Shown: positions 1-16,873, counted from the first letter of the stretch. The stretch is 64,000 nt of DNA from Dehalococcoidia bacterium (GCA_963663895.2 CAXXRD010000002.1:349889-413888); one strand, 5' to 3'. Translations and numbers: made by a program. The notes: a model not told the origin generated them from the sequence alone.

Positions 1-221
1 CCACGACCGCATGCGCCCAGCGCGAGACGCATCCAGCGGCGCGGGAAGGCGACCAGCAGGGCCGCCAGGGTCCCTATGTGGACCGCCGCATCAAAGGCCA
101 GCCCCGGATCGTCCCAGCCGAGGATCCAGCGAGCCAAGACGAGATGGCCGCTGCTCGATACCGGCAGGAACTCCGTCACGCCCTGCAGGACGCCGAGCAC
201 CACCGCTTCCAGAATCGACAT
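1..221 (-). CDS. uppP: undecaprenyl-diphosphate phosphatase (UppP/BacA), N-terminal part; the gene continues past the window start
   Basis: My own reverse-complement translation from the ATG (complement of 219-221) reads MSILEAVVLGVLQGVTEFLPVSSSGHLVLARWILGWDDPGLAFDAAVHIGTLAALLVAF... This carries the TEFLPVSSSGH signature of the UppP family. It is missing from the ORF track because there is no stop inside the window. Confidence 0.85.
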   Translation of the reverse strand, partial: MSILEAVVLGVLQGVTEFLPVSSSGHLVLARWILGWDDPGLAFDAAVHIGTLAALLVAFPRRWMRLALGACGR

Positions 222-292
222 CAGCCGCTCGTCCGATCCCTCCCTGGCACGGGCCGATGCTCCAGCGTAGAGCTATCGGGAGCAGGGGGCGG
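211..292. repeat. repeat copy A (uppP start codon plus upstream region)
   Basis: agaatcgacatcagccgctcgtccgatccctc...gatgctccagcgtagagctatcggg...cagggggc. The first 32 nt are identical to copy B. The first 11 nt are the reverse complement of ATGTCGATTCT, codons 1-4 of uppP. Confidence 0.8.
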
Positions 293-319
293 GAACAGAA
301 GAAGGGCCGTGGGCGGAGC

Positions 320-635
320 GAGGAACCGGGGATCGCCTTGGGGTCCCGCTGGACCGACGCCGAGCGTGGGGAACTTCAGGCCCCGTACGACGAGCATGGT
401 CGTCGGGCGGCTCTTCCGCGATCACCTCCGCCGGGCCGAGCTGCCGCCCGTCCGTTTTCATGACCTGCGCCACGGCGCAGCGACCTATCTGCTCTCGACG
501 GGCGTACCGATGGGGGCCGTGATGGACATCCTAGGCCACACGCAGATGTCGACGACGAGCGACCTCTACTCCCACGTGCTGCCGGAGATGAAGCGGGAAG
601 CCAGCGAGAAGATCGGGGCGGTGCTGTTCGGCTAG
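320..635 (+). pseudogene. tyrosine recombinase/integrase remnant (C-terminal catalytic part only; frameshifted and internally deleted)
   Basis: The C-terminus of ORF 78..635 reads LFRDHLRRAELPPVRFHDLRHGAATYLLSTGVPMGAVMDILGHTQMSTTSDLYSHV, which contains the HxLRH and LGH...Y catalytic motifs. An upstream ALGSRWTDAERGEL (L-R-W-x-D-like) string sits in a different frame (ORF 11..463) only about 30 codons away. The N-terminal roughly 200 aa are missing. Confidence 0.7.
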
Positions 636-891
636 AGCAGCGCGGGCTCGTTTCGCAACCGGACGGGCGAGACCCGGGCGCATCTCGACGAGGATGCACG
701 TCCTCATCGCCTCCAGGGATCACGCGGAGGCACCGCTGCTGAGAGCCGCGTGCTTAGGACTGTTCCCGCGACGGCGTCGGCCGACGGCCCTGCCCGGTCT
801 ACGGGCACTACAAGGCCGCGGCTTCTGCGGCGCTCGGTCCGACATCGATGCATCCTTGAGTCCCCGGGATCACCAGCAATATGAACGACCC

Positions 892-1113
892 TCAACGATA
901 CATATGTCCCACTCCGGATGGCGGGCGATCCGACAGGTCGCCCCAGCAGACCAGCTCGCCGTCCGCGCGCCGCACCTCGACGCAGGCACCCGCGCCGACC
1001 ACGCGGAAGATGAGGGCCTCGCTGAAAGGGGGGAACTCAAGCGTCGGCTGGACGAGGAGCCAGTGCAGTGCGCCCTCGTACAGATCGAAGGGGGAAACGC
1101 GCTGCATCGCCAC
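892..1113 (-). CDS. small hypothetical protein (73 aa), divergent from the SbcD-like gene
   Basis: ORF track. Third-codon positions are strongly G/C-biased by eye, as in real genes here. No recognisable motif. Confidence 0.3.
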   Translation of the reverse strand: MAMQRVSPFDLYEGALHWLLVQPTLEFPPFSEALIFRVVGAGACVEVRRADGELVCWGDLSDRPPSGVGHMYR

Positions 1114-1203
1114 TTTCTTCGTTACTTCATATTTCTTGCATTTGCGACATAGCTACCACAGAGTGGAGGAGGTCGCGGCGTACACAGGGAAACTGTTTAG
1201 GCA

Positions 1204-2343
1204 ATGGTATTCCGCTTCATCCATACCGCCGACTGGCAGATCGGCAAGGTTTTCCGCTTCGTCGATGATGTCGCGATGGGCGGGCTCCAGCTGGCGCGGC
1301 TGGAGGCGATCACGCACGTCGGCAACCTCGCCTCGGAACACGATGTGCGCCATGTGTTGGTCGCGGGTGATGTATACGACCACGGAACTCCCTCCACACA
1401 CTCGCGCAACCAAGTCGTCGAGAGAATGCGGGCTCACACCTCCGTACACTGGCACCTGTTGCCAGGGAATCATGATCCGTACCAGCCCAATGGACTCTGG
1501 GACCAGCTCCGAAGGCGTGGCTTGCCAGATAACATCCACGCGCATACCGAATCGGCCGCCACCATCATCGAGCAGGATGCCGCAGTCCTGCTCCCGGCAC
1601 CACTACAGCATCGTCGTACGCTCGCCGATCCCACCGCTTGGATGGACAACCATCTCAGCGAAGCTGGCTTGATCCGCATCGGCCTCGCACATGGCGCCGT
1701 CTACGGCTTCGATACTAACGAGAAACAGAGATCCAACCCAATCGACCCTGCGCGGCCACAGCTCGCTCGGCTTGACTACCTGGCCCTAGGCGATTGGCAT
1801 GGAGAACTTCAGATCAACGAGCGCTGTTGGTACAGCGGCACGCCGGAGACGGACTCGTTTCAGACGCGCGGCAAGGGCACAGTCCTGCTGGTCGAAATCG
1901 CCAGCCCGAACGAGTTGCCCCAAGTCACTCCGCTCTCGACAGGTCAGTACCATTGGGAATCGCTCGATGAGCGCGTGGAGGACCTAGAAGACGTAAATCT
2001 CCTTGACAACAAATTGCGGCACCTGAACGACGACCTCAACCACACGCTGGTCGATTTGAGGCTCTCCGGAGCGCTCTCACTGGCTGACCTGCTGCACTTC
2101 GAGGAACGGATCGTCGAAGGGGCGGCCGCAGCGCTATACCATCTCCGGGTCGACCGTAGGCAGCTATTTCCAGAACCCACCGACGACGATCTCGACAGTA
2201 TTGACCCGGGCGGGATTGTACGCGCCGCTGCTGACAGGCTTCGAGCTATCGTCGAGGCAGGGGGGAGCGACACCGACCTCGCTCGTGCCGCCCTTCACCG
2301 ACTCTACATCGAGCACAAAAAGCTCGAATCGAGGCTACGATGA
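1204..2343 (+). CDS. calcineurin-like metallophosphoesterase, SbcD/Mre11-like nuclease subunit
   Basis: MVFRFIHTADWQIGK (compare E. coli SbcD HTSDWHLG), VAGDVYDH, LPGNHDP, GLAHG and LGDWHG match metallophosphatase motifs I-V. Motif I reads D-W-Q instead of D-x-H. The ATGA overlap with the next gene suggests coupling. Confidence 0.85.
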   Translation: MVFRFIHTADWQIGKVFRFVDDVAMGGLQLARLEAITHVGNLASEHDVRHVLVAGDVYDHGTPSTHSRNQVVERMRAHTSVHWHLLPGNHDPYQPNGLWDQLRRRGLPDNIHAHTESAATIIEQDAAVLLPAPLQHRRTLADPTAWMDNHLSEAGLIRIGLAHGAVYGFDTNEKQRSNPIDPARPQLARLDYLALGDWHGELQINERCWYSGTPETDSFQTRGKGTVLLVEIASPNELPQVTPLSTGQYHWESLDERVEDLEDVNLLDNKLRHLNDDLNHTLVDLRLSGALSLADLLHFEERIVEGAAAALYHLRVDRRQLFPEPTDDDLDSIDPGGIVRAAADRLRAIVEAGGSDTDLARAALHRLYIEHKKLESRLR

Positions 2344-5036
2344 AGTTGCGCAAGCTCTCAGTCAACCAGTTCAAGCGCTTCACCGCCCCGACTCAGTTGG
2401 GCGAACTCGTCGACGGTCTCAATCTGGTCGTTGGGCCGAACGAGCTTGGCAAATCAACTCTGCTGGACGCGCTTCGAGCAGTGTTGTTCGAGCGATACAG
2501 CTCCAGAGCGCAGCCAATCATGGCATTGCAAAACGATCGCAGCGGCGCCGCGCCGGTCGTGGAACTAGTCTTCGAAGTCAGCGGCGCTGAATACACGTTG
2601 ACCAAGCGCTTCGTCAAGAGCCCCCATGCCCGGCTGCAATGTCCCGATGGAACACTGCTCGAAGCGGACGCTGCCGAAAACAAGCTGCGCAACCTTCTGG
2701 GTTTCGCCGAGGCCGGCAGCCGGGGAGCGACTTCTGAAACGCTTGGCATGTGGGGCGTCCTCTGGGTGCAGCAGGGACAGTCTTTCGGTAGACCGGCTCT
2801 ACCCGATTCGGCGCTGGCGAGCCTCAGCTCGGGGTTGGAGTCCGAAGTCCGAACGGTCCTTGGAGGCCGGCGTGGCAGAGAGTTGCCGCAGGTCCTTGAA
2901 CAGCGACGGGGCGAACTGGTAACGACGGCGCGGCGTCAACCACGCGGTGAACACAAAGACACGATTGACCGCATCAGTGAACTGGAACAACGTCTAAGCG
3001 ATCAACAGCAGCAACAGCAGCAGATGTCGGAAACGCTTGAGCAGTTGGCGGTGACGGAAGCACGGCTCAGGCGGCTGGAGGACGATAGTCAGGATCTAAT
3101 CGACCAGGAAGGACTTACGGAGGCCCAGGGCCAGCTTGACGAGGTGATGCGGCACGACCTGCAGCTCGAAGCGGCTCGCAGCGAACTGCAGAACCGGCAA
3201 GGGCAGCTTGAGCAAGCCCAACGCGCCCAATCCGAGCGCGCATCCCGGTGGGCAGAGCTTAAGACTGATCAGGAAGAGTTGAGGCAGCAGCGAGAGCGCC
3301 TGGAGGAACTGCAATTACGCGAGCGAGAATCGCTGGCCGGTCTAGACGAGCTTCGCCAGGCTGCGGCCAACGCCGAAGCAGCCCTTGAAGTAGCGATACA
3401 GTCAGAGGCAAGCTGGCGCGTTATCGTCGATCGCATTTCCCGATCCGCAGAGTTGAACGACTTGCTCCGCCGCCAGAAGGCTATCGAAGCTGCGCAGGAA
3501 CGACTCGCAGACGCCCAGCATCAGGCCGAGCAGATTCAGGTCACGGACGAATCCCTACAACGCATCCGCTCGGCCGCCGAGATCGCCGACCAGGCAAATG
3601 CCCGGCTTCGTGTAGCGGCGACTCGTATCGGCTTCGACATCCCCAGCGACCGTCTTGCCGGCATTGAGGCCGGCGGCGTTCCGCTGGCAGACCCGCCTAC
3701 GACGGTCGAGGCGGTCGAGCCAGTCGTGATTACCATCCCTGAGCGGGGACGGATTCTCATCGAACCGGCCGTCGCCGACCACGACCAGCTCTTGCGCGCA
3801 GAGCGGGAAGCGAAATTAGAGTTGCAAGCTGCGCTCAGTGACGTCGGTGCACAATCGCTTGCCGACGCACAGATCCTGCGCGATGGGCGGCGCGATCTCG
3901 AGGTCACCGCCAGCGCGGCGCGGCAGGAGCTTGAGCGGCTCGCGCCGTCTGGCGAGGCACCGACACTGCAGCCACGAATCGATGAGCTGCGCCAAGCGCT
4001 AGAGGCCCTGCCCACAGAAGAGGATACGGTTCAGATGCCGCAAAGGGATCACGCAGAGGCTGCCCTGGACTCGGCTCAGACAGAACTACAGAAGGCGAGG
4101 GACGAGGAACGGATCGCTCGTGAGGCTGTGGATGAGCGGGCACGAGCCACCTCAGGCCTCAGTGTGGAAGTGCGCACACTACAGAACACAGTGGGTAGTC
4201 AAACCGAGTTGGTTGAAAGGCGTGATGAAAGGCTCCGGAGCGATGCCGAAGCTGTGCCCGATCAACAACTTGCAGTGGTGTCTGACACAGCAGCACAGGC
4301 AGTGGCGGAACAGCAACAGGCTGTCTCCTCGCTGGAGGAGGACCGGCCGGCCAGCGCCAGGACGCAGTTGGAAGCTCGGATCTCACGACTACAGACGGCG
4401 ATTGGGCAGCGCGCAAGCTCAAAAGTTGACTTGAGAATCGAGAGCGTCCGCCTGCGTGAACGCATCGAAGTCCACGAGAGTGCCGGCATTGACGAAGCCA
4501 TCGAACATACCCAACACGAACTCGAACAAGCAACACGCCGACGCGACCGTTTTGAACGCGAACTCGAGGTCCTTGACCTCTTAGCCGACACACTTCGCGC
4601 GGCCGAGAGCGAAGCCAGAGAGCGCTACCTCGCGCCTGTCGTCAACCGCGTCCACCCTTACCTGCAGATGCTTTTCCCCAACGCTGAAATTAGCATGGAC
4701 GAGGACCTGAACATCACCGGCATGTCCCGCTTGGTTGGATACGAGGAGAGTTTCGATCATCTGAGCATGGGTACTCAAGAACAGATCGCCGTCCTTGTGC
4801 GCCTCGCCTTCGCCGAAATGCTAATTGACCGAGGAGCACCCGCCACCGTGATCCTGGACGATGCGCTCGTGTTCTCCGACGACCAGCGGATGGGGCTGAT
4901 GTTCGACATCCTCTCGCACGCCGCTCAGCGCGTACAGATCCTGGTTTTCACCTGTCGCGAGCAGCTCTTCGAGGGTCTCGGTGCGCACCAGCTACAGATC
5001 GCCTCGGTCGATGCCGAGTCTCTCCGCTCGGCCTAG
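2340..5036 (+). CDS. SbcC/Rad50/YhaN-like coiled-coil ABC-type ATPase (898 aa)
   Basis: N-terminal Walker A (LVVGPNELGKSTLLDAL). A long Q/E/R/L/A-rich coiled-coil middle. C-terminal signature LSMGTQEQ and Walker B/D-loop (TVILDDALVFSDD). No CxxC zinc hook is visible in the coiled coil. Confidence 0.85.
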   Translation: MKLRKLSVNQFKRFTAPTQLGELVDGLNLVVGPNELGKSTLLDALRAVLFERYSSRAQPIMALQNDRSGAAPVVELVFEVSGAEYTLTKRFVKSPHARLQCPDGTLLEADAAENKLRNLLGFAEAGSRGATSETLGMWGVLWVQQGQSFGRPALPDSALASLSSGLESEVRTVLGGRRGRELPQVLEQRRGELVTTARRQPRGEHKDTIDRISELEQRLSDQQQQQQQMSETLEQLAVTEARLRRLEDDSQDLIDQEGLTEAQGQLDEVMRHDLQLEAARSELQNRQGQLEQAQRAQSERASRWAELKTDQEELRQQRERLEELQLRERESLAGLDELRQAAANAEAALEVAIQSEASWRVIVDRISRSAELNDLLRRQKAIEAAQERLADAQHQAEQIQVTDESLQRIRSAAEIADQANARLRVAATRIGFDIPSDRLAGIEAGGVPLADPPTTVEAVEPVVITIPERGRILIEPAVADHDQLLRAEREAKLELQAALSDVGAQSLADAQILRDGRRDLEVTASAARQELERLAPSGEAPTLQPRIDELRQALEALPTEEDTVQMPQRDHAEAALDSAQTELQKARDEERIAREAVDERARATSGLSVEVRTLQNTVGSQTELVERRDERLRSDAEAVPDQQLAVVSDTAAQAVAEQQQAVSSLEEDRPASARTQLEARISRLQTAIGQRASSKVDLRIESVRLRERIEVHESAGIDEAIEHTQHELEQATRRRDRFERELEVLDLLADTLRAAESEARERYLAPVVNRVHPYLQMLFPNAEISMDEDLNITGMSRLVGYEESFDHLSMGTQEQIAVLVRLAFAEMLIDRGAPATVILDDALVFSDDQRMGLMFDILSHAAQRVQILVFTCREQLFEGLGAHQLQIASVDAESLRSA

Positions 5037-5475
5037 GCCTGTCTAAGCTGGCGGGCTTCCGAGGGCCCGCGGTCTGGGTAGCGCTGCTTCCGTCCCCACG
5101 GCCGGAGTCGGGTGTCGGTGACACACCTTGTCGCGCAGGGCTGCTCCGCCATACTGACGCAAGGATCAGTCGCGTCCTGAGACTAAATGCGGTGTAACAG
5201 GGTCGACAGCCTATTCAGCGCCACGATCGCCGTGCCCGCCGGACCGGCATAGCGTCCCCTCTCGGCCGTCTCGTTCAGATTAACGACGCCGCCACAGAAA
5301 ATGTTCCGCACGGAGTCCAAGTCTGGCAGCCCCAAGCGCGACGCCGCTCCGCAATGGTCCGCTCAGTGGACCACAGTGGACCGTGAGCCCTCCACCACAA
5401 CAGGGGTATATCCGGAAACCCCTGGTTTCGTAGGGAAATCCGCACAGGGGGCGCCGTGACGGTCCCTCGGACCGG

Positions 5476-5556
5476 AGAATCGACATCAGCCGCTCGTCCG
5501 ATCCCTCGCCTGCCCGGCTTGATGCTCCAGCGTAGAGCTATCGGGAACAGGGGGCT
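5476..5556. repeat. repeat copy B (same orientation as copy A)
   Basis: agaatcgacatcagccgctcgtccgatccctcgcctgcccggcttgatgctccagcgtagagctatcgggaacagggggctgga. It lies immediately upstream of the ABC ATPase start. Confidence 0.8.
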
Positions 5557-5562
5557 GGAGCT

Positions 5563-6501
5563 GTGGGCCCTTTTCCCTATGATCACTCCATGGACGCGCC
5601 AGTCATTGAGGTCCGGGGCCTGCGGAAGCGATACGGCGCGATCGAGGCGGTTCGCGGCGTCGATCTGCAGATCGAGCACGGGGAAGTCTTCGCGCTCCTT
5701 GGTCCGAACGGCGCGGGCAAGACGACGACCGTTGAGATCCTCGAAGGACATCGGGCGCGCTCCGGCGGCGAGGTGCGCGTGCTCGGCTACGACCCCGAGC
5801 GGAATCCGGTCGCGCTCAAGCAGCGCCTCGGCATCGTGCTGCAACGCACTGGCCTCGAGCCGTACTTGACCGTCGCGGAGACGATCGACATGTTTCGCGG
5901 CTACTACCCGCAGCCGCTGCCGCTCGACGACGTGCTCGCGGTCGTCGGGCTGGAGGAGCAGCGCGACCAGCGGGTGCGGCGGCTCTCGGGCGGACAGCAG
6001 CGGCGGCTCGATGTGGCCGTTGGCCTGGCCGGGGATCCGACGCTGCTCTTCCTCGACGAACCGACGACGGGCTTCGACCCGACGGCGCGGCGCGGCGCCT
6101 GGGCGATGATCCGCAACCTGCGCACGCTCGGGAAGACGGTCCTGCTGACGACGCACTACCTCGATGAAGCGGAGGCCCTCGCCGATCGCGTCGCGATCAT
6201 GGTGCGCGGCGCGATCGTGGCCGAGGGCACGCCGGCAGGGCTGGTCGCAGCGGACACAGGGACGGTCATCCGCTTCCGCCTCCCAGAGGGAGCGACGCTG
6301 CCCGAGGAATTCGGGCGCCACGAGACGACCGCAGGACACGTGGAGATCCGCACGCCGGATCCGACGCGCGTCCTGCACGCCCTCACAGACTGGGCAATCG
6401 CCGCGGGCATCGCGCTGGAAGGTCTCACGGTGCGCCGCAGCTCGCTCGAAGACGTGTTCCTGCGGCTGACGGGCGAAGAGGAGAGCAGGGACGCGTCGTG
6501 A
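5563..6501 (+). CDS. ABC transporter ATP-binding protein (ABC-2/DrrA-type exporter)
   Basis: LLGPNGAGKTT Walker A, LSGGQQRRL signature and LLFLDEPTTGFD Walker B. GTG start at 5563, with an alternative ATG at 5590 (MDAPVIEVRGL...). Confidence 0.9.
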   Translation: MGPFPYDHSMDAPVIEVRGLRKRYGAIEAVRGVDLQIEHGEVFALLGPNGAGKTTTVEILEGHRARSGGEVRVLGYDPERNPVALKQRLGIVLQRTGLEPYLTVAETIDMFRGYYPQPLPLDDVLAVVGLEEQRDQRVRRLSGGQQRRLDVAVGLAGDPTLLFLDEPTTGFDPTARRGAWAMIRNLRTLGKTVLLTTHYLDEAEALADRVAIMVRGAIVAEGTPAGLVAADTGTVIRFRLPEGATLPEEFGRHETTAGHVEIRTPDPTRVLHALTDWAIAAGIALEGLTVRRSSLEDVFLRLTGEEESRDAS

Positions 6502-7274
6502 GGGCGCTTGGACTCGCCCTGCGCCAGCTCAAATATGAGGAGCGATCCTTCCGGCGCAACCCAGCGGCGGCGTTCTTCACGCTCGCGTTCCCCCTCGTCT
6601 TCCTCGTCATCTTCACCGCCATCTTCGGGAACCGCGATACCGATCTCGGCGGCCGCGTGGTCAGCGGCGCCACTTTCTATGTGCCCGCGATCGTGGCGCT
6701 GACGGTGGTGAACTCGTGCTACACGTCGCTCGCGATGAGCTGGGTGTATAACCGCGACGCGGGCGTATTGAAGCGCATCCGCGGAACCCCCCTGCCGCCG
6801 TGGGCGTTCCTCTTCGGGCGCATCGCCTACGTCGTCCTCGTGATGCTGGCTCTGACGGTGATCGTGGTGGCGTTCGGGCGGATCGCCTACGGCGTCGCAC
6901 TGCCGGGGGCGACGCTGCCGGCGGTGCTCGTGACGCTGGCCGTGGGAGCGTTTGCCTTCTGTGCCCTGGGGCTGGCGATCGCGACGGTGATCCCCAACGC
7001 CGACGCCGGACCAGCCATCGTGAACGCGTCGATTCTTCCCCTGCTGTTCATCTCCGACGTCTTCATCCCTCCCGGTGTCGGCGCGCCCGCTTGGGTCGGA
7101 CACGTGAGCGCCGTCTTCCCCGTACGGCATCTCTCGGAAGCGCTGCAGACGGGCTTCAACCCCTTCGAGGCGGGCGCGGGTTTCGAGCCGGTGCATCTGG
7201 GCGTGCTCGCCGCCTGGGGAGTGGCCGGGTTGGTCGTTGCGCTGCGCTTCCCCTCGTGGGAGCCGCGTGCCTGA
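6498..7274 (+). CDS. ABC-2 type transporter permease
   Basis: GTGA start/stop overlap with the ATPase. A hydrophobic multi-TM protein of 258 aa, typical of ABC-2 permeases. Confidence 0.85.
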   Translation: MRALGLALRQLKYEERSFRRNPAAAFFTLAFPLVFLVIFTAIFGNRDTDLGGRVVSGATFYVPAIVALTVVNSCYTSLAMSWVYNRDAGVLKRIRGTPLPPWAFLFGRIAYVVLVMLALTVIVVAFGRIAYGVALPGATLPAVLVTLAVGAFAFCALGLAIATVIPNADAGPAIVNASILPLLFISDVFIPPGVGAPAWVGHVSAVFPVRHLSEALQTGFNPFEAGAGFEPVHLGVLAAWGVAGLVVALRFPSWEPRA

Positions 7275-7416
7275 ACCACCGGAATCCACGTGGCCGCCGT
7301 GTTTGCAACCGCGACCAAGGGTGGGATCAGCAGCGGACGACCACCACAGCCGGGACGAAGACATCGCGTGGCCGTCACACACGCCGAAGCGCGACCCGAT
7401 CCGCGTGCCGAGAGCG

Positions 7417-8655
7417 CTAGCGGCCCTCGCCGCGCTCGACCACCGGCTCGCCCCCCAACACCACCATGCGGATCCGCTCCGCCTCCTCCAAGATCCCGAT
7501 CTCCGCGACCGGATCTCCGTCAACCACGAGCAGATCCGCCAGCTTTCCCTCCTCCACCGTCCCGAGCGCATCGCCCATCCCCACGATCCCTGCGTTGGTC
7601 GCCGTTGACGCGACCAGCGCCCCCATCGCTCCCAGCACCCGCGCCTTGAACCGCAGCTCCCGCGCCTTCAGCGGCTGGTGCAGGCCGAGCAGATCCGACC
7701 CCGACCCGATCGCGACCCCAGCGTCCCGGGCGATCTCCAACGACGTGTAGGCCTCCGTCAGCGCCTCTTCGATCTTGCGCACGCTGTTCTCCGGCACCCC
7801 GTGCTCCCTCCCCTCCGCCGCGATCAGCTCGTACACCGCCAGCGTGGGCACCAAGTAGGTGCCGCTCGTCTGCAGGAGCGGCGCGGTCGCCTCATCCAAG
7901 AAATTTCCGTGCTCCAGCGTGCGCACCCCCGCCTCCACGCAATTGCGCATGCTCTGCGGCGTGTAGGTGTGCGCCATCACGTATTTCCCCGTCGCCTTTG
8001 CCTCCGCCACCGCCGCCCCCAGTTCCTCGACCGTGAACTGCGTCGACCACATGTCGTCCGTGGGCGACACCGCCCCCCCATTCGCCATCACCTTTACCTG
8101 GTCCGCCCCCCGTCGCAGCACCTCCCGCGCCGCCCACCGCACCCGCTCCGGCCCGTCCACCACCAGGGACGGACAGTACACGCCGGGGTTGTAGGGCGGC
8201 GCCCGCGTGTCGTTCTCGCGGCGGAAGTCTCCGTGGCCGCCCGTCTGCGAGATCCAGCTGTTGCAGATAAAGAGCCGCGGCGCCCGGATCAGGCCCCGCG
8301 CGGCCGCGTCTTTGTAGCCCCAGTCGAGCCCGCCCGCGTCGCGCACGCTCGTGAACCCCGCCGCCAGGGTCGCCTCGATGTTGCGCGTCACCCGCAGGGC
8401 GTACACCGCCGGCGCCTGCCGCTGCGCCGAGCTCACTTCGAAGTCGACAAGCGCCAAATGCGCATGCGCGTCGATCAGCCCCGGCATCAGCGTCCGCCCG
8501 GCACAGTCGACCACGCGATCCGCGCGCCTGCGCAGCGAGCCCGCCGCTCCAATCTTGGCGATCCGCCCGTTCTCCACCAGGACGGCCCGCTCGGGCTGCG
8601 GATCGCGTCCCGTGCAATCGAGCACCTGCGCGTGTTCGAAAAGGATGCTGCTCAT
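7417..8655 (-). CDS. amidohydrolase family metal-dependent hydrolase
   Basis: MSSILFEHAQVLDCTG...GRTLMPGLIDAHAHL, with the HxH metal motif. I trimmed the start to the internal ATG at 8655. The ORF-track N-terminal extension is Arg/Gly-rich read-through. Confidence 0.85.
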   Translation of the reverse strand: MSSILFEHAQVLDCTGRDPQPERAVLVENGRIAKIGAAGSLRRRADRVVDCAGRTLMPGLIDAHAHLALVDFEVSSAQRQAPAVYALRVTRNIEATLAAGFTSVRDAGGLDWGYKDAAARGLIRAPRLFICNSWISQTGGHGDFRRENDTRAPPYNPGVYCPSLVVDGPERVRWAAREVLRRGADQVKVMANGGAVSPTDDMWSTQFTVEELGAAVAEAKATGKYVMAHTYTPQSMRNCVEAGVRTLEHGNFLDEATAPLLQTSGTYLVPTLAVYELIAAEGREHGVPENSVRKIEEALTEAYTSLEIARDAGVAIGSGSDLLGLHQPLKARELRFKARVLGAMGALVASTATNAGIVGMGDALGTVEEGKLADLLVVDGDPVAEIGILEEAERIRMVVLGGEPVVERGEGR

Positions 8656-8902
8656 CGCGGCCCTGCCGGCGGATGCCTCCGCCGGATGCCGCAGTCTAGC
8701 TCTCCGGCTCCCGCAGCGCCGCCCGCGTCCCTCGGCACGGCGGCGATCCCCTGCCGCGCCGAGAGCTTGCGTCTCCTCGCTGGTCCGGTCCTCGCGGTAC
8801 CTGCGATCCTCCGGCCGGCCTCGTCCGCTTCCCCGGAGAGGACTAGGCTGCTCTCGGATCGACCCGCCGGTTCCCCAACGCCTGCAACCCTTGGAGATCC
8901 CC

Positions 8903-9427
8903 ATGCGCCCACCCTCACCGACGCACGCCATCGCGAACGGCTTCAGCCAGCTCGCTTACGTCGTCCCGGACATCGCCGCCTCCGAGCAGTTCTTCATCGA
9001 CACCTTGGGCGTCCCCGGCTTCTTCCGCATCGAAGACATCCCCGTCTACGACTCCACCTACCGCGGCGGGCCCGGCGACTACGGCATGCACCTCTCCCTC
9101 GGCTACGCCGGCGACACCCAGATCGAGCTCGTCCAGCCCCTCCGCGGCCGAAGCCTCTACCAAGAGTTCCTCGACGCCCACGGCCCCGGCCTTCAGCACC
9201 TCGGCTACCTCATCGAGGACGAGCCCGCCGCCATCGCCTACTTCGCCGCCCACCACATCCCCCTGATCCAAAGCGGGCGCCTCGGCACCAATCCCGGCAT
9301 GCGCTACGCCTACTTCGACACCACCCCCCAAATCGGCATCGTCACCGAAACCCTCCTCCTCGACGAGGAAACCCGAACGCTCTTCGCCCGCGTCAAGAAC
9401 GGCAAGCACGGCGTGTACCGCGCATAA
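8903..9427 (+). CDS. VOC (glyoxalase/bleomycin resistance/dioxygenase) family protein
   Basis: FSQLAYVVPDIAASEQFFIDTLGV...GLQHLGYLIED is a typical VOC fold pattern. Start trimmed to the ATG at 8903. Confidence 0.8.
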   Translation: MRPPSPTHAIANGFSQLAYVVPDIAASEQFFIDTLGVPGFFRIEDIPVYDSTYRGGPGDYGMHLSLGYAGDTQIELVQPLRGRSLYQEFLDAHGPGLQHLGYLIEDEPAAIAYFAAHHIPLIQSGRLGTNPGMRYAYFDTTPQIGIVTETLLLDEETRTLFARVKNGKHGVYRA

Positions 9428-9642
9428 GGGCCGTTGTCCCCGGCGACATGCTCTGGGTCGTGGCGCCGCGGGCCTAGAGGGTCGGAGGCTAGCGACCGCG
9501 CCCCAGGAACGCATGCACTTCGCTCACTGGAAAAGCATCGTCCTTCAGGACCTCCCGAGCGAGCGGGGTTGCCCTTCGGCAGGGCCGCCCGCAGTCCAAC
9601 GCGACACCGATGGACAGCCGCCACGCTGTAGGCGCGGCTCTT

Positions 9643-9697
9643 GCTTGCCCGGGCCGATGCTCCAGCGTAGAGATATCGGGGAGACGGGGCGGGAGCA
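9643..9697. repeat. repeat copy C (partial, core only)
   Basis: cttgcccgggccgatgctccagcgtagagatatcggggagacggggcgggagcag matches the right-hand roughly 50 nt of copies A and B. It lies about 120 nt upstream of the FeS/NrfD gene. Confidence 0.65.
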
Positions 9698-9818
9698 GCG
9701 CGCCGATCCGGTGCGGAGGCAAGAGACGCCGCCCTCGCCGGGGATGGCTGCTACGCTTTTGGTCGCCGACTGAAACCCTCCGGCCGAGGCACTCGGCCGG
9801 AGTTGCGAGGAATACGGA

Positions 9819-11348
9819 TTGGCTGCGACCGAGAGCCTCGCATCTGCCGCGAATCCCCCCACCTGGGTCAAGATCATCGACCAACAGCGCTGCATCGGCT
9901 GCCATGCGTGCAGCGTCGCCTGCAAGGCCGAGAACGATGTCCCCTTGGGCGTCCATCGCACCTTCGTGAAGGAGGTCGAGGTTGGACGGTTCCCCAGCGT
10001 AGCGCGCAGCTTCCAAGTCACCCGCTGCAACCAATGCGAGAACGCGCCCTGCACCAGCGTGTGCCCCACGCGGGCGATGTACCGCCGGCCCGACGGCATC
10101 GTCGACTTCGACCGGGCCATCTGCATCGGCTGCAAGGCCTGCCTGAACGCCTGCCCCTACGACGCGATCTACATCGATCCGGTATCGCGGAGCGCGGAGA
10201 AATGTAACTTCTGCGCGCACCGCATCGACCGCGGTCTCGAGCCCGCCTGCGTCTCCGTTTGCCCCACGGAGGCGATCATCGTGGGAGACCGGCGGCGCCC
10301 ATCCGCCGCCCTGAGCCGGTACCTCGGGGATCGCGACCTGCGCGTGCGCAAGCCGGAACGCGGCACGCATCCGAAGCTCTTCTATCACGGTGGGGACGGT
10401 CGCGGGCTCGACCCGCTGATCACGGATCTCACCCGCCCGCGCGCCGCGACCGAGCGGCCGATCGGCGCCACGGTCACGCAAGCGGCGGCGATCATGGGCG
10501 ACGGCGGCGCGCGCGCGGCGCCATGGGGCTGGCGGATCTCCGCCTACACCTGGACGAAAGCGGTGGCGGCGGGGCCGTTCCTGCTGTGGCCGTTCCTGGC
10601 GCTCGGCATGACGCTCGAACGGCAAGCGTGGACGCTCCCCCTGGCGGCGATCGCCGCCACGGGGCTCGCGCTCACGGTCGCGTTGCTGGTAGCGGATCTC
10701 ACGCACCCGAAGCGCTTCTACCGCATGCTGGTGCAGCCGCACTGGCGCTCGTGGCTCGTGCGGGGCGGGGTCGCGCTCCTGCTGGCCTCCGCGGGCGTCG
10801 GCCTATTCTTGATCGCCGGGCTGGTCAATTCCAGCGTATTCATCACGGCAGCGGGGTGGCTGCTGCTTCCACTGGCGCTGGGGCTCGCCGGCTACACCGC
10901 CTTCCTCTTCCGCGACAGCAAAGGGTGCCGGCTCTGGCAGAGCCCGCTGCTTCCCCTGCATCTCCTCGTGCAAGCAGCCGTGATCGGGGCCGGGGTCCTC
11001 GTGTTGGTAGAGAGCGCGGCGCAGCTTCCCTGGTCCGACCTGCGCGCGCTGGTGGGGATCTTGCTCGCCGGATCGCTCTTGCACACGGCCCTGATCGTCA
11101 GTGAGTTCGCGCTGTCCAACCACGAAGCCGAGAGCCGTGCGGCCCTGCAGGCGCTGCGGCGCGGGCGCTTGCGAGGCTGGCTGTGGCTGGGAGCGGGCGG
11201 CGTCGCGCTGGGGATCGGGCTCGCCGTCGTGAGTTTGTCGATGGCGGAGCCCGTCGCGGCGTACGTGGCGGCGGGTGTCGTGATCGCGGCGATCGGCGCC
11301 TACGAGCATGCGTACGTGCAGGCGGGGCAGTCCGTCCCGCTGGCTTGA
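9819..11348 (+). CDS. 4Fe-4S dicluster protein fused to an NrfD/PsrC-like integral membrane domain
   Basis: The N-terminus has four Cys clusters (CIGCHACSVACK, CNQCENAPC, CIGCKACLNACP, CNFCAHR...C..CP), like DMSO-reductase-family B subunits. The C-terminal roughly 300 aa are multi-TM. TTG start with GAGGA 7 nt upstream. Confidence 0.85.
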   Translation: MAATESLASAANPPTWVKIIDQQRCIGCHACSVACKAENDVPLGVHRTFVKEVEVGRFPSVARSFQVTRCNQCENAPCTSVCPTRAMYRRPDGIVDFDRAICIGCKACLNACPYDAIYIDPVSRSAEKCNFCAHRIDRGLEPACVSVCPTEAIIVGDRRRPSAALSRYLGDRDLRVRKPERGTHPKLFYHGGDGRGLDPLITDLTRPRAATERPIGATVTQAAAIMGDGGARAAPWGWRISAYTWTKAVAAGPFLLWPFLALGMTLERQAWTLPLAAIAATGLALTVALLVADLTHPKRFYRMLVQPHWRSWLVRGGVALLLASAGVGLFLIAGLVNSSVFITAAGWLLLPLALGLAGYTAFLFRDSKGCRLWQSPLLPLHLLVQAAVIGAGVLVLVESAAQLPWSDLRALVGILLAGSLLHTALIVSEFALSNHEAESRAALQALRRGRLRGWLWLGAGGVALGIGLAVVSLSMAEPVAAYVAAGVVIAAIGAYEHAYVQAGQSVPLA

Positions 11349-11372
11349 GCGATCCGATCGGAGAGCAAGACG

Positions 11373-14300
11373 ATGACCGGTGATCCCACTCCTCCGCCCC
11401 ATAGCGGCGTACTGCGCGCCGGACCGGAGCTCGCCGAGTGGAAGCACTGGACCGAATGGGACGCGCGCGCCTGGCCCGAGCGGAAAGAGCGCGCCTACCA
11501 GCTGGTGCCCACGGTCTGCTTCAACTGCGAAGCGGCTTGCGGATTGGTGGCGTTCGTCGACAAGTCGACGGGCGCGATCGCCAAGTTGGAGGGACACCCG
11601 CTGCACCCGGCGAGCCGCGGCCGCAACTGCGCCAAAGGGCCGGCCACGCTCGCCCAGGTGCAGAATCCGGATCGCATTCTCTATCCCCTGCGGCGCGTCG
11701 GGCCACGCGGATCGGGCCGCTGGGAGCGCGTCACGTGGGAGGCGGCCTTGGACGATCTGGCCGCGCGGATCCGGGAGGAGCTGCTGGCCGGCCGCCGCGA
11801 CCGGATCGTCTACCACGTCGGGCGGCCCGGAGAGGACCTCTACACGGAGCGGGTCCTGGCGACTTGGGGCGTCGACGGGCACAACTCGCACACGAACGTC
11901 TGCTCGGCCGCCGCCCGCGCCGGCTACGCCTTCTGGATGGGGATAGACCGCCCGATGCCCGATCACGAGCGGGCGCGCTTCTTGCTCATGCTCAGCTCGC
12001 ACCTGGAAGCGGGGCACTACTTCAACCCCCAGGCGCAGCGGATCATCGAGGCCCAGGCGAGTGGCCGGGCGAAGCTCTGCGTGATCGACACGCGCCTCTC
12101 CAACTCCGCCGCGAAGGCCGACTACTGGCTCGCACCCTGGCCGGGCACGGAAGCGGCGCTGCTGCTCGCGGTCGCGAGCTTTCTGATCCGGGAAGACCGG
12201 TGCGACTGGGAGTTCGTGCGCCGCTGGACGAACTGGCGCCAGCTGCTCGGGGAGCGCGGCTACCTGGCCACCCTCCGGAGGAACGGGCGGATCCGCATCA
12301 TCCCCGCGGCGGATGACTTCGACGCGTTCAAGTCGCTGCTGGCAGAGCTCTACGCGCCCTACACGTTCGCGGCCGCCGCCGAGGAGTGCGGGGTCGCAGA
12401 GGAAACGCTCCAGGCCGTCGCGCAGGAGGTGGCGGCAGCCGGCTCCGGGCTGGCGACGCACGTCTGGCGCAACGCCGCGGCGGGCAACCGCGGCGGCTGG
12501 ATGGTGGCCCGCTGCCTCTTTTTGCTGAACGTCCTCACCGGATCAGTGGGAAGCGAGGGCGGGACGCTGCCCAATCAGTGGACGAAGTTCGTGCCGCAGC
12601 CCCACAGCATGCCGGCTCCGGTGCAGACCTGGAACGAAACTCTGTGGCCCGCCGCTTGGCCGCTGGCGCACTTCGAGCTGAGCTTCCTGCTGCCTCATCT
12701 GCTGCGTTCCCAGGAGCAGCAGATCGGCGTCTATTTCACGCGCGTCTACAACCCCGTCTGGACGAACCCGGACGGATTCGCCTGGATCGACCTGCTCTCC
12801 GACGAGCGCCGCATCGGCCTGCACGCGGCGCTCACGCCGGTCTGGAGCGAGAGCGCGCAGTACGCCGATTACGTGTTGCCGATGGGACTCGGCCCCGAGC
12901 GACACGACCTGCACAGCTACGAGACGCATGCGGCGCAATGGATCGGCTTCCGCCAGCCGGTGCAGCGGGTCGTGCGCGCGGACCGCGGGGAGACCGTGGA
13001 CTCCACGCTGGGCAGCAATGCGGGGGAGGTGTGGGAGGAGAACGAGTTCTGGATCGAGCTTTCGTGGCGGATCGATCCCGACGGGGCGCTGGGCATCCGC
13101 CGCCACTTCGCGTCGCCCTACCGGCCCGGCGCTCGGATCACGATCGAGGAGTACTACCGCTGGATCTTCGAGCACTCCGTGCCCGGCTTGCCGGAAGCGG
13201 CCGCCGCGGCCGAGGCGTCACCGTTGCAGTTCATGCGGGAGCGGGGCGCCTTCGAAGTGACACGGGATGTGTATCGCTTGCACGAGCAGCCCGTGGATGC
13301 CGCGCTCGCCGCGGCGGCGACCAGGCATGATGGCGCGCTCTGGACGGAGCAGCCGCCGCCCAAAGTGAACTTCGCTCCCATCCCGGGTCCCTTCCGGGAC
13401 GCGGAGGGGCGTGTGCGGATCGGCATCGTGGATGAATCCGGCACTGCCGTGCAAGGCTTCCCCACGCCATCGGGCAAGCTCGAGTTCTTTTCATCGACGC
13501 TGAACGATTGGGGCTGGCCGGAGTGCGCGATTCCCTTCTACCCGCTCACCCCGAAGCAGCGAGAAGAGACGTCCGCGCTCGTGAGCCAAGTCCATCCTTC
13601 CCAGATCGACACCACGGCGAATGAATACGTCCTGCTTCCCACGTTCCGCCTCCCAACGCTGATCCACAGCCGCACGAATGGGGCGAAGTGGCTGCACGAA
13701 CTCGCCCACGTCAACCCCGTGTGGATCCACCCGCAGGACGCCGCGCGAGTGGGCGTGACGAGCGGCGAGCTGGTCCGGGTGGAAACCGCGATCGGATCGT
13801 TCGTCGACCGCTGCTGGGTGACGGAGGCGCTCCGTCCCGGGGTCGTCGCTTGCTCGCATCACTTGGGCCGCTGGCGCTTGCAGGAAGAGCATGGCAGCGA
13901 TCGCTGGAATTCGTCCTTGGTATCGATCGAGCAAGAGATCGATCAAGAGAAGGAGATCTGGCGGATGCGGCGCCGCCACGGCGCCGGCCCTTTCCAAGGC
14001 GACCGAGACTCCGCGCGGATCTGGTGGTCGGACGGCGGCGTGCACCAGAATCTCATCTTCCCCGTACAGCCCGATCCGATTAGCGGGCAACACTGCTGGC
14101 ATCAGAAGGTGCGGCTGCGGCGCGCGACGGAGGATGCGTACGGCGAGATTACGGTCGACCAAGCAGCGGCGCGGCGCGTCTATGAGGACTGGCGCGCCTT
14201 GACCCGCTTCCCGACCGCCCAGCGCGAGCGCCGACCCTACTGGCTCCTGCGGCCGCTCAAGCCGCATCCCGACGCCTACCGGCGGGACGCGGCACCGTAA
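11373..14300 (+). CDS. molybdopterin (bis-MGD) oxidoreductase catalytic subunit
   Basis: 975 aa. N-terminal CFNCEAACG...C FeS motif followed by a typical MopB-family sequence. No twin-arginine motif is visible in the first 45 residues. Confidence 0.9.
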   Translation: MTGDPTPPPHSGVLRAGPELAEWKHWTEWDARAWPERKERAYQLVPTVCFNCEAACGLVAFVDKSTGAIAKLEGHPLHPASRGRNCAKGPATLAQVQNPDRILYPLRRVGPRGSGRWERVTWEAALDDLAARIREELLAGRRDRIVYHVGRPGEDLYTERVLATWGVDGHNSHTNVCSAAARAGYAFWMGIDRPMPDHERARFLLMLSSHLEAGHYFNPQAQRIIEAQASGRAKLCVIDTRLSNSAAKADYWLAPWPGTEAALLLAVASFLIREDRCDWEFVRRWTNWRQLLGERGYLATLRRNGRIRIIPAADDFDAFKSLLAELYAPYTFAAAAEECGVAEETLQAVAQEVAAAGSGLATHVWRNAAAGNRGGWMVARCLFLLNVLTGSVGSEGGTLPNQWTKFVPQPHSMPAPVQTWNETLWPAAWPLAHFELSFLLPHLLRSQEQQIGVYFTRVYNPVWTNPDGFAWIDLLSDERRIGLHAALTPVWSESAQYADYVLPMGLGPERHDLHSYETHAAQWIGFRQPVQRVVRADRGETVDSTLGSNAGEVWEENEFWIELSWRIDPDGALGIRRHFASPYRPGARITIEEYYRWIFEHSVPGLPEAAAAAEASPLQFMRERGAFEVTRDVYRLHEQPVDAALAAAATRHDGALWTEQPPPKVNFAPIPGPFRDAEGRVRIGIVDESGTAVQGFPTPSGKLEFFSSTLNDWGWPECAIPFYPLTPKQREETSALVSQVHPSQIDTTANEYVLLPTFRLPTLIHSRTNGAKWLHELAHVNPVWIHPQDAARVGVTSGELVRVETAIGSFVDRCWVTEALRPGVVACSHHLGRWRLQEEHGSDRWNSSLVSIEQEIDQEKEIWRMRRRHGAGPFQGDRDSARIWWSDGGVHQNLIFPVQPDPISGQHCWHQKVRLRRATEDAYGEITVDQAAARRVYEDWRALTRFPTAQRERRPYWLLRPLKPHPDAYRRDAAP

Positions 14301-14381
14301 CGCCGGCGGATCGTCCGGCGCGGCCGGACGGCCGCGCTAGAATCGCTCAGGACAGCGAGAGGGCAGCAGAGGAGAGTCGCG

Positions 14382-15803
14382 ATGCTTCTCAAGCAATTCT
14401 ACCTCGGCTGCCTGGCGCAAGCCTCTTATCTCATCGGCGATCGGGAGCACGGCGCCGCCGTGGTCGTCGATCCGCGTCGCGATATCGACGAGTACGTCGA
14501 CGAGGCGGAGCGCCTCGGCTTACGGATCGAGCGCGTCATTCTGACGCACTTCCACGCCGATTTCGTGGCCGGGCACATTGAGCTTCGCGATCGCGTGGGG
14601 GCGCGGATCTGCCTGGGCGCCGGCGCCCAAGCGGACTACCCGTTCGATCCGCTCCACGACGGCGACGTAATCACGCTCGGGCGGGTGCGTCTCGAGATCC
14701 TCGCCACGCCGGGGCACACGCCCGAGGCGATCTGCATCTTGGTACGAGACCTCGGCGCACCCGAGGAGCCGGGAGCGCTGCTCACGGGGGACACGCTCTT
14801 CATCGGCGACGTCGGACGTCCCGATCTGATGGCGTCACCCGGCACCTCCGCCGTTGACTTGGCGGGGCAACTCTACGACTCGCTGCATGGCAAGCTGCTG
14901 TCTCTGCCCGATGAGACGATCGTGTATCCGGGACACGGCGCAGGGTCGCTTTGCGGCAAGAACATGAGCTCGGAAACGTCGTCACCCTTGGGCGTGCAGC
15001 GCCGCTACAACTATGCCCTTCAATCCATGAGCAAAGAGGCGTTTGTGGACCTGGTGACGGCCGACCAGCCGGAAGCGCCCGCCTACTTCGCTTACGACGC
15101 CGACTTCAACCGCCGCGAGCGGATACGGCTGGACGAGATCCTGCCGGCGGAGCTGCGGCCGCACGCGCTGGGCGCCGTGCTCCAAGCACAGCAGGACGGC
15201 GCCCAAATCATCGACGTACGGGATCCCGGAGAGTTCGCGGCGGCACACCTGGCGGGGGCGATCAATATCGGATTGGGCGGCCAATACGCCAGTTGGGCCG
15301 GGACCTTGCTGGATCGAGCGCGACCGATCGTCCTCATCTGCGAGCCAGACGCCGAAGTGGAAGCGGCGACGCGGATGGGGCGGGTCGGAATCGAGAACAT
15401 CGCCGGCTATCTCGCAGGCGGGATGGCGTCGGTGCGAGAGCGGCCCGATTTGCTTCGCAGCTTTCGCCGCTACGCTCCCCGGACGCTGCGGGAGCGGCTC
15501 CAGGACGCGGATGACCCGTACCTCCTGGACGTGCGGCGCGAAGGAGAGACCCGACTCGGCCGCATCGCCGGCAGCGCCAATGTGCCGCTCGGCCAGCTGG
15601 AGCAGCGGATCGAGGAGGTCCCCCGCGACCGCGAAGTCACGATCTACTGCGCCGGGGGGTATCGCTCGGCGATCGCGGCGGGCATTCTACAGGCGCACGG
15701 CTTCACGCAGCTGAGCGACCTCGCAGGCGGCTACAACGCCTGGGTGGCGAGCGGGTGCCCGGCGGAAGCTCCGCCCGAGCGTTCGCAGAGTCCGTCCGTC
15801 TGA
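14382..15803 (+). CDS. MBL-fold hydrolase (persulfide-dioxygenase-like) fused to rhodanese domains
   Basis: THFHADFVAGH metallo-beta-lactamase motif. A C-terminal rhodanese active-site loop (YCAGGYRS). Confidence 0.85.
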   Translation: MLLKQFYLGCLAQASYLIGDREHGAAVVVDPRRDIDEYVDEAERLGLRIERVILTHFHADFVAGHIELRDRVGARICLGAGAQADYPFDPLHDGDVITLGRVRLEILATPGHTPEAICILVRDLGAPEEPGALLTGDTLFIGDVGRPDLMASPGTSAVDLAGQLYDSLHGKLLSLPDETIVYPGHGAGSLCGKNMSSETSSPLGVQRRYNYALQSMSKEAFVDLVTADQPEAPAYFAYDADFNRRERIRLDEILPAELRPHALGAVLQAQQDGAQIIDVRDPGEFAAAHLAGAINIGLGGQYASWAGTLLDRARPIVLICEPDAEVEAATRMGRVGIENIAGYLAGGMASVRERPDLLRSFRRYAPRTLRERLQDADDPYLLDVRREGETRLGRIAGSANVPLGQLEQRIEEVPRDREVTIYCAGGYRSAIAAGILQAHGFTQLSDLAGGYNAWVASGCPAEAPPERSQSPSV

Positions 15804-15955
15804 CGGGGCGATCCCCGCACGCGACCGGACGCCGTCCCCAGCGGGGCAGCGCCGGCCCCAACAGCGCCGCGCCGCCAGGGCTCCGGGCAGACTCACGTGT
15901 GCAGCCGACGCGGTCGCGTGATGGCCGATGCGCCCTCCCGGCGCTTGGAGCGAAG

Positions 15956-16873
15956 CTAGCGTCGTACGGGGATCGTCTCCGCGAACGTCTCGAGCGCCGC
16001 ATCCAAAGCCGCGGCCTGCCCCTCGCCGTGGTAGATGTCGTAGGCGCCGCAGGGAACCAGCACGAGACTTTTCGGTTCGCGCGCCTTCTTGTAGGCGTCT
16101 TGGATGTGCTCAAGCAGGTGGATCACGTCCCAGCCGCCCGAGGTGACGATGCGAAGCGGGCGCGGAGCGATCTGATGGATCACGCTCTCCGGATTGAATT
16201 CGATCACCTTTTCGATCGACTCCAGCGCGATCTCCGGCTCCGAAATCAGGAGCGGCTTTCCGGTCCGCTCCGTGTAGTCCGTGAAGAAGCGCATCGTGCG
16301 TGCATCCATGGGGATGATGCCGGCGCTGCCCCCGCGCTGCGTGGGCGGCACGCGCTCGCTTTGGCCCGTCTCGTAGCGCCGCTTGCGATCGGCTTCAAGC
16401 CGATCTTGCAACTCCTCCCAACCGGCGCTGGTGAGCAGCGCTTGCATCCAGCGGCGCCCGTTCACGACCGGGACCTCCGCCACGACCGCCTTGACCCGGC
16501 GATCGACGGCGGCCGTCCAGATCACCACCGCGCCGCCAAAGCTGGCGCCCCAAATACCGATGCGATCCGGGTCCACCTCGGGCCGGTGCTGGAGATAGCT
16601 CACCGCGTTGCGAAAGTCCTCCACTTGGTTCAGCGGGAAGAGCTGCCCGCGCGGCTCGCCTTCGCTCGCGCCGAAAGTGCGGTAGTCGATCGCCAGCACG
16701 ACGTATCCCGCGCGGCGGAAGAACTCCGCCTCCGTCGCCAGTGACTGCTTGACGACCCCGAACCCGTGCCCGAGCACCAGTCCCGGCCGCCGCTCCTCGG
16801 GCGACAGGCCATCGGGGAGGCCCAGCTCTCCCGCCACCCGCACGCCGCCGCTCGGTACCCAAACGTTCTCCAT
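15956..16873 (-). CDS. alpha/beta hydrolase
   Basis: GIWGASFGG nucleophile elbow (GxSxG) and HGFG oxyanion region. Confidence 0.8.
   Translation of the reverse strand: MENVWVPSGGVRVAGELGLPDGLSPEERRPGLVLGHGFGVVKQSLATEAEFFRRAGYVVLAIDYRTFGASEGEPRGQLFPLNQVEDFRNAVSYLQHRPEVDPDRIGIWGASFGGAVVIWTAAVDRRVKAVVAEVPVVNGRRWMQALLTSAGWEELQDRLEADRKRRYETGQSERVPPTQRGGSAGIIPMDARTMRFFTDYTERTGKPLLISEPEIALESIEKVIEFNPESVIHQIAPRPLRIVTSGGWDVIHLLEHIQDAYKKAREPKSLVLVPCGAYDIYHGEGQAAALDAALETFAETIPVRR

Follow-up and report, generated by a model that had tools for sequence, protein, structure and literature searches.

The window analyzed here is a stretch of 64,000 nucleotides (nt) from a Dehalococcoidia bacterium (GCA_963663895.2 CAXXRD010000002.1:349889-413888). 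Near its left end, a 5.3-kb islet separates the 5' part of uppP, the gene for an undecaprenyl-diphosphatase of the BacA family, from the genes of an ABC-2 type exporter (Table 1). The islet carries the C-terminal stump of a tyrosine-integrase gene, an SbcD-like and a Rad50/SMC-like gene, and the first codons of a lipoprotein gene. As a genomic island it is genuine, though of a fairly ordinary sort. A sequence-only reading of the window had proposed that it entered by site-specific integration at the 5' end of uppP and that its integrase decayed afterwards. We describe the islet together with the same site in related genomes, whose proteins and contigs are labelled Chloroflexota and Dehalococcoidia metagenome-assembled genomes (MAGs) in their sources.

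Repeats and gene content of the islet

A repeat search of the window showed that the islet is bracketed by an 84-nt direct repeat, whose copies A and B are identical at 75 of the 84 positions (89%). Repeats of about 81 bp had been described from the sequence alone (211-292 and 5476-5556), and the copies proved to run 2–3 nt further. The other statements made about them held: the leading 32 nt are identical, with the first mismatch at repeat position 33, and the uppP start, ATGTCGATTCT, appears in reverse complement as AGAATCGACAT at nt 1–11. On its sense strand the uppP start reads GTCGATTCT, which resembles the T-loop of a tRNA (TTCGATTC-like). An open reading frame (ORF) beginning MSIL (5280-5486, minus strand) was also present as described; it has no Pfam family and is a spurious annotation explained by copy B, from which it arises. 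A 25-nt core of the repeat occurred three times in the 64-kb window, compared with 0.00 times expected (none in 100 shuffles). Within positions 1–12000, a tRNA scan detected no tRNA gene, and there was no Rfam match at E ≤ 1. The G+C content between about 1000 and 5000 was 0.57–0.67, mostly near 0.60, against 0.66–0.75 in the flanks, in agreement with the lower G+C ascribed to the cargo; the integrase end was host-like (0.68).

The integrase remnant was found just inside copy A, where the sequence-only reading had placed it. Its match to PF00589 scored 46.5 bits (gathering cut-off, 27.1) and covered only profile positions 104–170 of 172. By tblastn, nt 303–632 corresponded to residues 280–385 of a 385-amino-acid integrase, P0122, to which the remnant was 65% identical by BLASTP. 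The remnant thus comprises 106 C-terminal residues; it keeps the HDLRH motif and the tyrosine of LYSH, and the first ~279 codons are gone. It begins no more than 9 nt after the end of copy A, and the upstream arm is gone too. No complete integrase gene with a full catalytic domain was found, and the islet is a remnant unable to mobilize itself rather than an active member of the family. A second integrase fragment (LGSRWTD) in another frame was considered and dropped, since tblastn gave one continuous frame from nt 303.

Intact integrases of this family have about 385 residues, with a Phage_int_SAM_3 and a Phage_integrase domain. P0122, 80% identical over the conserved C-terminus, comes from a Dehalococcoidia MAG and has a tRNA-like 3' fragment as its neighbour, and the remnant was 83% identical in nt sequence to positions 10946-11158 of locus L005. 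IMG/VR contained no relatives of the integrase. The island headed by the closest intact integrase, at L005 9720-21158, borders a tRNA-like 3' fragment; its cargo (an SHOCT protein, a 1224-amino-acid PIN-TPR-GreABC protein, a DUF4268 protein and a UvrD-like helicase) looks defence-like.

The islet cargo is a cassette of two genes, for an SbcD-like metallophosphoesterase (1204-2343, 379 amino acids) and a Rad50/SMC-like ATPase (2340-5036, 898 amino acids), with the Pfam domains Metallophos and SMC_N. This cassette is foreign to the locus. It matched three other loci (L002, L003 and L004) across exactly 1129-5066, the flanks being unrelated, and its surroundings there contain transposases, toxin-antitoxin genes and other integrases. 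It circulates in mobile contexts elsewhere. We found no terminal repeats on the cassette, and homology to the other copies simply stops, ~75 nt before the first gene on one side and 0–30 nt past the stop codon on the other. Homologues of the ATPase, at 80–88% identity, formed more than 120 protein clusters, nearly all of 895–899 amino acids; both ORFs are length-matched to their homologues, and the cargo looks intact.

With the metallophosphoesterase gene first and the gene for a long coiled-coil ABC ATPase second, the pair has the gene order of SbcCD/Mre11-Rad50 and of YhaO-YhaN (SbcF-SbcE) in Bacillus subtilis, its nearest relatives among known systems. In contrast to those pairs, the islet pair is carried on mobile DNA and fell below the family cut-offs of NCBIfam (SbcD TIGR00619, 51 bits against 77.65; Rad50, 51.4 bits against 700). 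Matches in the PDB were remote (SbcD, E 1e-6; Rad50, E 5e-9). The 898-residue ATPase has no CxxC zinc hook. The corresponding motif of E. coli SbcD is HTSDWHLG; in the islet protein, compared by eye, it reads HTADWQIG, with DWQ for DWH and thus glutamine at the position of the first metal-binding histidine. No PADLOC system was matched by the pair, and the SbcD-like protein had no PADLOC hit; the ATPase alone gave partial matches to LmuB (the best, E 1e-10) and N-terminal matches of the GajA type. The cassette is a candidate for a function in DNA-end processing or defence.

At the far end of the islet, the lipoprotein gene on the minus strand is a stub of 11 codons (MPVRRARRSWR, then a stop). 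Similar starts were found at three loci: MPVRRARRSW... with a lipobox in L009, MPGRRARRSW... in L005, and the start of a cytochrome-c lipoprotein in L016. The region upstream of the stub, which we read as the right arm of the element, contains AGTGGACC twice (5365-5372 and 5375-5382) and a GGGG...CCCC hairpin. It was 72.8% identical to L009 7692-7901, a match that stops 4 nt from tRNA-Pro(GGG) and lies between a full lipoprotein gene and that tRNA gene. It was also 74% identical to L005 18643-18734, and part of it recurs in L016. The stretch 5446-5475 was considered as a relic of a tRNA-Pro 3' end, and this was dropped because its local alignment score was no better than that of shuffled sequence.

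The four loci (window 5215-5445; L009 7692-7805; L005 18643-18734; L016 reverse strand, ~7150-7250) share a module, in which an upstream region, a signal peptide of the form MPxRRxRRxW and a lipobox are fused to unrelated mature proteins. The partners are cytochrome c in L016, a protein of ~770 amino acids in L009 and one of 188 amino acids in L005. The module is located at an element end in three of the four loci.

Table 1. Coordinates of the uppP islet, its repeats and neighbouring features in the window
Feature	Position	Strand	Basis or remark
uppP, 5' part (undecaprenyl-diphosphatase, BacA family)	3..221	-	Pfam BacA, E 2.1e-21; window starts inside the gene
Repeat copy A, attL-like	211..294	+	11 nt of uppP start plus 73 nt upstream; right end meets integrase codon ~280
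Tyrosine-integrase remnant	303..635	+	PF00589 (Phage_integrase), E 4.7e-12; BLASTP and tblastn to P0122
Unassigned island DNA, including 73-amino-acid ORF 892-1113 (-)	636..1128		No family match in Pfam, PADLOC or NCBIfam; unlike all loci compared
SbcD-like and Rad50/SMC-like cassette with its own upstream region	1129..5066	+	87.6-87.8% nt identity to L002/L003/L004
Spacer between cassette and lipoprotein stub	5067..5214		Unassigned; unlike all loci compared
Lipoprotein gene stub	5215..5249	-	Read from sequence; homologous starts in L009, L005 and L016
Conserved upstream region, read as right arm	5250..5445		Similar to L009 and L005
Repeat copy B, attR-like	5476..5559	+	Continuous with native upstream region of the ABC exporter
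ABC-2 type exporter	5590..7274	+	ATPase 5590-6501, permease 6498-7274; Pfam ABC_tran, ABC2_membrane
Third partial copy (copy C), right ~51 nt of repeat	9646..9699	+	Between glyoxalase gene and FeS/NrfD gene

The uppP site in related genomes

A metagenome scaffold (L001) was found through the exact ABC ATPase protein and was aligned to the window by blastn. In L001, the complete uppP gene (9088-9897, minus strand, 269 amino acids) is directly divergent from the ABC exporter, which starts at 10001. Window 1-294 aligned to L001 9677-9970 and window 5476-16501 to L001 9887-20912, the latter at 98.5% identity. The arrangement was the same in L015 (97.7% identical), where both window copies collapse onto one. 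In both loci the spacer between uppP and the exporter is ~103 nt long and contains a single copy of the 84-nt sequence. Presence and absence of the islet is therefore polymorphic, with breakpoints exactly at the flanking repeats, and an islet whose integrase no longer works is still gained and lost among strains that are ~98% identical. The empty site predicted by the sequence-only reading thus exists, and the ABC exporter is the native divergent neighbour of uppP. For annotation it should be kept in mind that this pairing, which is like that of bacitracin-resistance genes, is split in the window strain.

A UppP search returned two clusters of close relatives. In L017 and L018, whose flanks were ~92–96% identical to the window (three more similar contigs exist), uppP is followed by an A-type copy and, across the junction GGGA/ACAGAAG, by the same integrase stump as in the window. 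Both loci aligned to window 1-624 and then from 5566/5569 onwards, so that the stump is fused to the upstream region of the ABC exporter. At this deletion junction the window edges read GGTGC/TGT and GGAGC/TGT; the state amounts to a microhomology deletion of window 625 to ~5561, copy B included. The catalytic tyrosine of the stump is replaced in L018. Copy A and the stump (211-624) differed by 4–6% from L017/L018, compared with ~5–17% at flanking third codon positions. Such a divergence is less than expected of a dead gene and could reflect constraint on the upstream region or more recent exchange.

L016 represents a sister species (UppP 89% identical). At its left junction, AGAATCGACAT/CCATCC..., an element arm joins uppP immediately at the ATG. 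The arm contains four GTCTGGYT repeats and a GTGGACC/GTGGCC site and is followed by an integrase gene that retains residues 1–66 and 189–385 and is 77.6% identical in nt sequence to the window remnant. This layout matches that of the L005 region between the tRNA-like 3' fragment and the intact integrase, and GTGGACC-type sites lie upstream of the integrase gene in both loci. Beyond the L016 integrase, the opposite strand encodes a cytochrome-c lipoprotein whose gene has the conserved upstream region, and an amidohydrolase gene comes next. Neither the ABC genes nor the 51-nt motif formed by the right part of the repeat are present at the L016 locus. Positions 1-9000 of L016 also lack the Mo-oxidoreductase operon and hold instead, besides the cytochrome-c lipoprotein gene, an AAA_15/SMC_N ATPase and an IS1595 transposase.

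The uppP start is thus occupied by one tyrosine-integrase family in three lineages and in differing states of decay, and its repeated use could go back to one old event or to several. Together the loci form a clean natural decay series at one site of an uncultured Chloroflexota lineage: L016 has the integrase and its arm, the window a truncated integrase plus cargo and L017/L018 the stump only, whereas L001/L015 are islet-free.

The variants within the repeat copies bear on the history of the site. Positions 33–84 of copy B share variants with the single copy of L015 (AA at 71–72, C at 43), and copy A shares CTGGCACGGG with the copies of L017/L018. This pattern fits copy B being the resident sequence and copy A an older or foreign version. 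Between copy B and L001 there are six differences in 52 nt, which places this stretch in the top 0.8% of windows over the 11-kb flank. Because the junction of copy A with the integrase is common to the window and L017/L018, the structure would predate their split or have been exchanged between them. Of these relatives, L017 is further from the window than L001 and L015 are, so that the absence of the islet from the latter two is most simply explained by a later loss through recombination between copies A and B. The B-type variant at positions 33–39 of their single copies would place the crossover inside the 32-nt identical block. The divergent arrangement of uppP and the ABC exporter, which the sequence-only reading had assigned to the time before integration, is therefore real, but L001 and L015 are probably secondary losses and not the pre-integration state. 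Their variant pattern does not fit simple excision products of the present sequences with A on the left and B on the right.

Copies of the repeat outside the islet were few. Copy C matches only the right ~51 nt, and nhmmer detected no weaker copies in the 64-kb window, which gives three copies there in total. Copy C is kept in L001 and L015; it lies within a segment of ~310 nt (the glyoxalase-FeS spacer, window 9429-9740) that is replaced by ~55 unrelated nt in L017 (reverse complement, 14076-14123). The short L017 spacer begins with TAAGAATCGACG and thus contains the 9-nt AGAATCGAC of the uppP start. A further copy, covering repeat positions ~10–84, is present at L009 3973-4046, between convergent genes and 3.65 kb from the conserved arm and tRNA-Pro, in the same Dehalococcoidia MAG as L005. 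We considered whether this copy carries the end of the right arm on its left, and dropped the idea because the similarity was not significant. In pattern scans of 596 Gb of GTDB species-representative genomes and of JGI metagenomes, the L009 copy was the only true one, the remaining hits being mostly chance coding matches in unrelated phyla. Among public sequences the 51-nt sub-motif is thus rare. The third copy, placed at 9643 by the sequence-only reading, had been named in advance as a warning that the repeat might be a common intergenic element; with one further copy among the GTDB genomes and none in the JGI metagenomes, this concern is eased, not removed. In the predicted hairpin of the motif, none of 17 pairs was changed on both sides, and the covariation term was unfavourable. 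A scan of the L001 spacer found no sigma-70 promoter and no terminator.

Integration, decay and competing explanations

Taken with the integrase remnants at the same site in three lineages, these results make it likely, in our judgment with good confidence, that the islet is what decay has left of an integrative element, which a tyrosine integrase brought into the uppP start. The element would have recombined with the chromosome at or beside the start codon, with its core in AGAATCGACAT or in the 32-nt identical block. Entry would have set it between uppP and the divergent ABC exporter and left each of these genes with its own 84 nt of start and upstream sequence, so that both keep a native upstream region. 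Afterwards the arm upstream of the integrase would have disappeared together with the first ~279 codons, and the distal lipoprotein gene would have shrunk to 11 codons; the interior is now occupied by the intact, lower-G+C SbcD/Rad50-like cassette. The present and absent states among ~98%-identical strains are best explained by RecA-type homologous recombination via the repeats, within the 32-nt identical block. The proposal of site-specific integration followed by decay of the integrase is thus supported by the occurrence of the same family at uppP in other lineages; the part that took the whole 84 nt as att homology is not, because repeat positions 12–84 have no counterpart at the left junction of L016.

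Several observations weigh against this interpretation. No intact element with both junctions at uppP was found. The search for an intact relative with the same att core, which the sequence-only reading had recommended, likewise returned none; of the nearest relatives, the intact integrase as well as the match to the right arm lie at tRNA-type sites. The N-terminal part of a tyrosine integrase is expected to set the choice of target, and the remnant is without it. The host-like sequence of copy A meets integrase codon ~280, at least 1 kb being missing exactly at the end of the repeat, and the L016 junction has nothing like positions 12–84. Copy C and the copy at L009 3973-4046 end near the same right boundary (positions 81–86), which hints at a discrete unit. 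The single copies of L001 and L015 are mosaics of A-type and B-type variants, so that gene conversion, strain polymorphism or repeated visits to the site must be invoked. Finally, read depth over flank and islet was equal in the two runs with usable data, X2 and X3 (5.8 against 5.7, and 7.3 against 7.35), and neither contained a junction skipping 5265 nt, that is, an islet-free allele, at a depth of only 6–7x and in contig data that drop rare variants.

Positions 12–84 of copy A may have been brought in by the element as a look-alike of the target or copied later from the right junction, and we consider these two origins about evenly balanced. A carried look-alike fits the diverged target repeats of 209 and 48 nt that surround two other small inserts in the window; given the abutment of copy A on codon ~280, it needs either a coincidence or the trimming of a longer homology. 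Later copying fits that abutment and the L016 junction. With either origin, uppP keeps 73 nt of native upstream sequence and the ABC exporter its whole spacer. Similarity of positions 12–84 to either the left or the right arm, of which they might have been a diverged piece, was not significant, and that candidate was dropped.

Later copying can be extended to a fuller account, which we hold to be a reasonable possibility short of an even chance. Integration would have used a short core, as in L016, and cut uppP off from its native upstream region; a later illegitimate event, either a template switch or recombination with an islet-free chromosome anchored at the core, would have exchanged the left arm and integrase codons 1–279 for a native 73-nt copy, giving the 84-nt repeat and restoring the region upstream of uppP. 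The L016 junction, which passes directly into the arm repeats, the absence of any arm between copy A and codon ~280, and the dissimilarity of positions 12–84 to both arms all speak for it. So does copy A of L017/L018, which is nearly identical to the L001 single copy save for one 3-nt cluster, as expected of a within-genome duplicate. However, this account requires an extra rare event and leaves the similar right boundary of copy C and the L009 copy unexplained, and the 209-nt and 48-nt repeats at the two other inserts fit carried look-alikes.

It is improbable that no site-specific integration took place and that the 51–84-nt sequence is a dispersed intergenic repeat or promoter module, with an islet moving by homologous recombination only and an integrase fragment that is passenger debris. 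Speaking for it are the third copy, which lies in the same orientation upstream of a different operon, the copy in a different genome at L009 and a presence/absence polymorphism without a working integrase. Yet one integrase family is found at the uppP junction in three lineages, in L016 with no copy of the motif there, the repeat begins exactly inside the uppP coding sequence, the database scans gave only one further copy of the motif, and nhmmer detected no weaker ones in the 64-kb window. Even less credible, and largely refuted, is the view that the segment is ancestral chromosome, with repeats from a local duplication and an interval deleted in L001 and L015. The copy A/integrase junction in L017/L018 does show that the structure is old, and L001 and L015 probably lost it; but the interval contains an integrase fragment and an arm common to elements at tRNA sites, and its cassette is ~9 points lower in G+C and 88% identical to copies in unrelated contexts.

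Within the reading of the islet as a decayed integrative element, a wider scenario can be offered only tentatively, and we think it rather unlikely as a whole. A Chloroflexota integrase family normally targeting tRNA genes would have taken the uppP start as a second site, and the element, or later selection, would supply an 84-nt portable upstream copy that keeps the regulation of both genes. The 51-nt sub-motif would be a scar or module of the family, and the uppP start a long-lived landing pad at which cargoes replace one another (L016 has a cytochrome-c lipoprotein, the window an SbcCD-like cassette) and are lost via the repeats.

Comparison with known elements and other repeats in the window

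Tyrosine-integrase islands at tRNA and tmRNA genes (P4-like, lambda-like), among which Williams reportedly distinguished sublocation classes in 2002, are alike in the integrase domain pair, the direct repeats of the target, the short repeated arm sites and the position of the integrase next to one junction. The relatives L005 and L009 do sit at tRNA-type sites. The uppP islet differs from these islands in that it lies at a protein gene, with the 5' end and start codon as target, its repeat covers an upstream region instead of a tRNA 3' end, and its integrase is down to 106 codons. Other elements bring a replacement for the end of a protein-coding target gene, among them phage 21 and e14 at icd and Streptococcus pyogenes prophages at the 5' ends of genes. 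With these, the gene survives insertion intact through a long duplicate of its end, slightly diverged in sequence, and the 84-nt repeat with its 89% identity fits this pattern. In contrast, the uppP duplicate is mostly upstream non-coding sequence common to two divergent genes, and, given the L016 junction, its origin from the element is only a candidate.

The ssrA-specific islands of Dehalococcoides use the serine recombinase DsiB and a 20-bp repeat with the tmRNA gene as target (PMC3146451). They resemble the uppP islet in belonging to Chloroflexota, in their target direct repeats and variable cargo, and in occurring in several decay states across strains, whereas the uppP islet has a tyrosine integrase, an 84-nt repeat and uppP as target. 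A partial literature search found no paper describing uppP as an attachment site. If the islet is the remnant of an integrative element, a family that elsewhere uses tRNA genes can also attach at the start codon of a protein gene. The uppP site can hold a widely circulating SbcD/Rad50-like cassette. Current understanding is not overturned by these findings.

The two other small inserts in the window are likewise bracketed by direct repeats. One repeat of 209 nt (21725-21933 and 22845-23053, 90% identical) brackets ~0.9 kb. The other, of 48 nt (24483-24530 and 26013-26060, 98% identical), brackets ~1.5 kb 5' of tRNA-Ser (24437-24526, minus strand) and represents the 5' half of that gene; its geometry is like that of the uppP islet, with the insert upstream and the 5' end of the target repeated.

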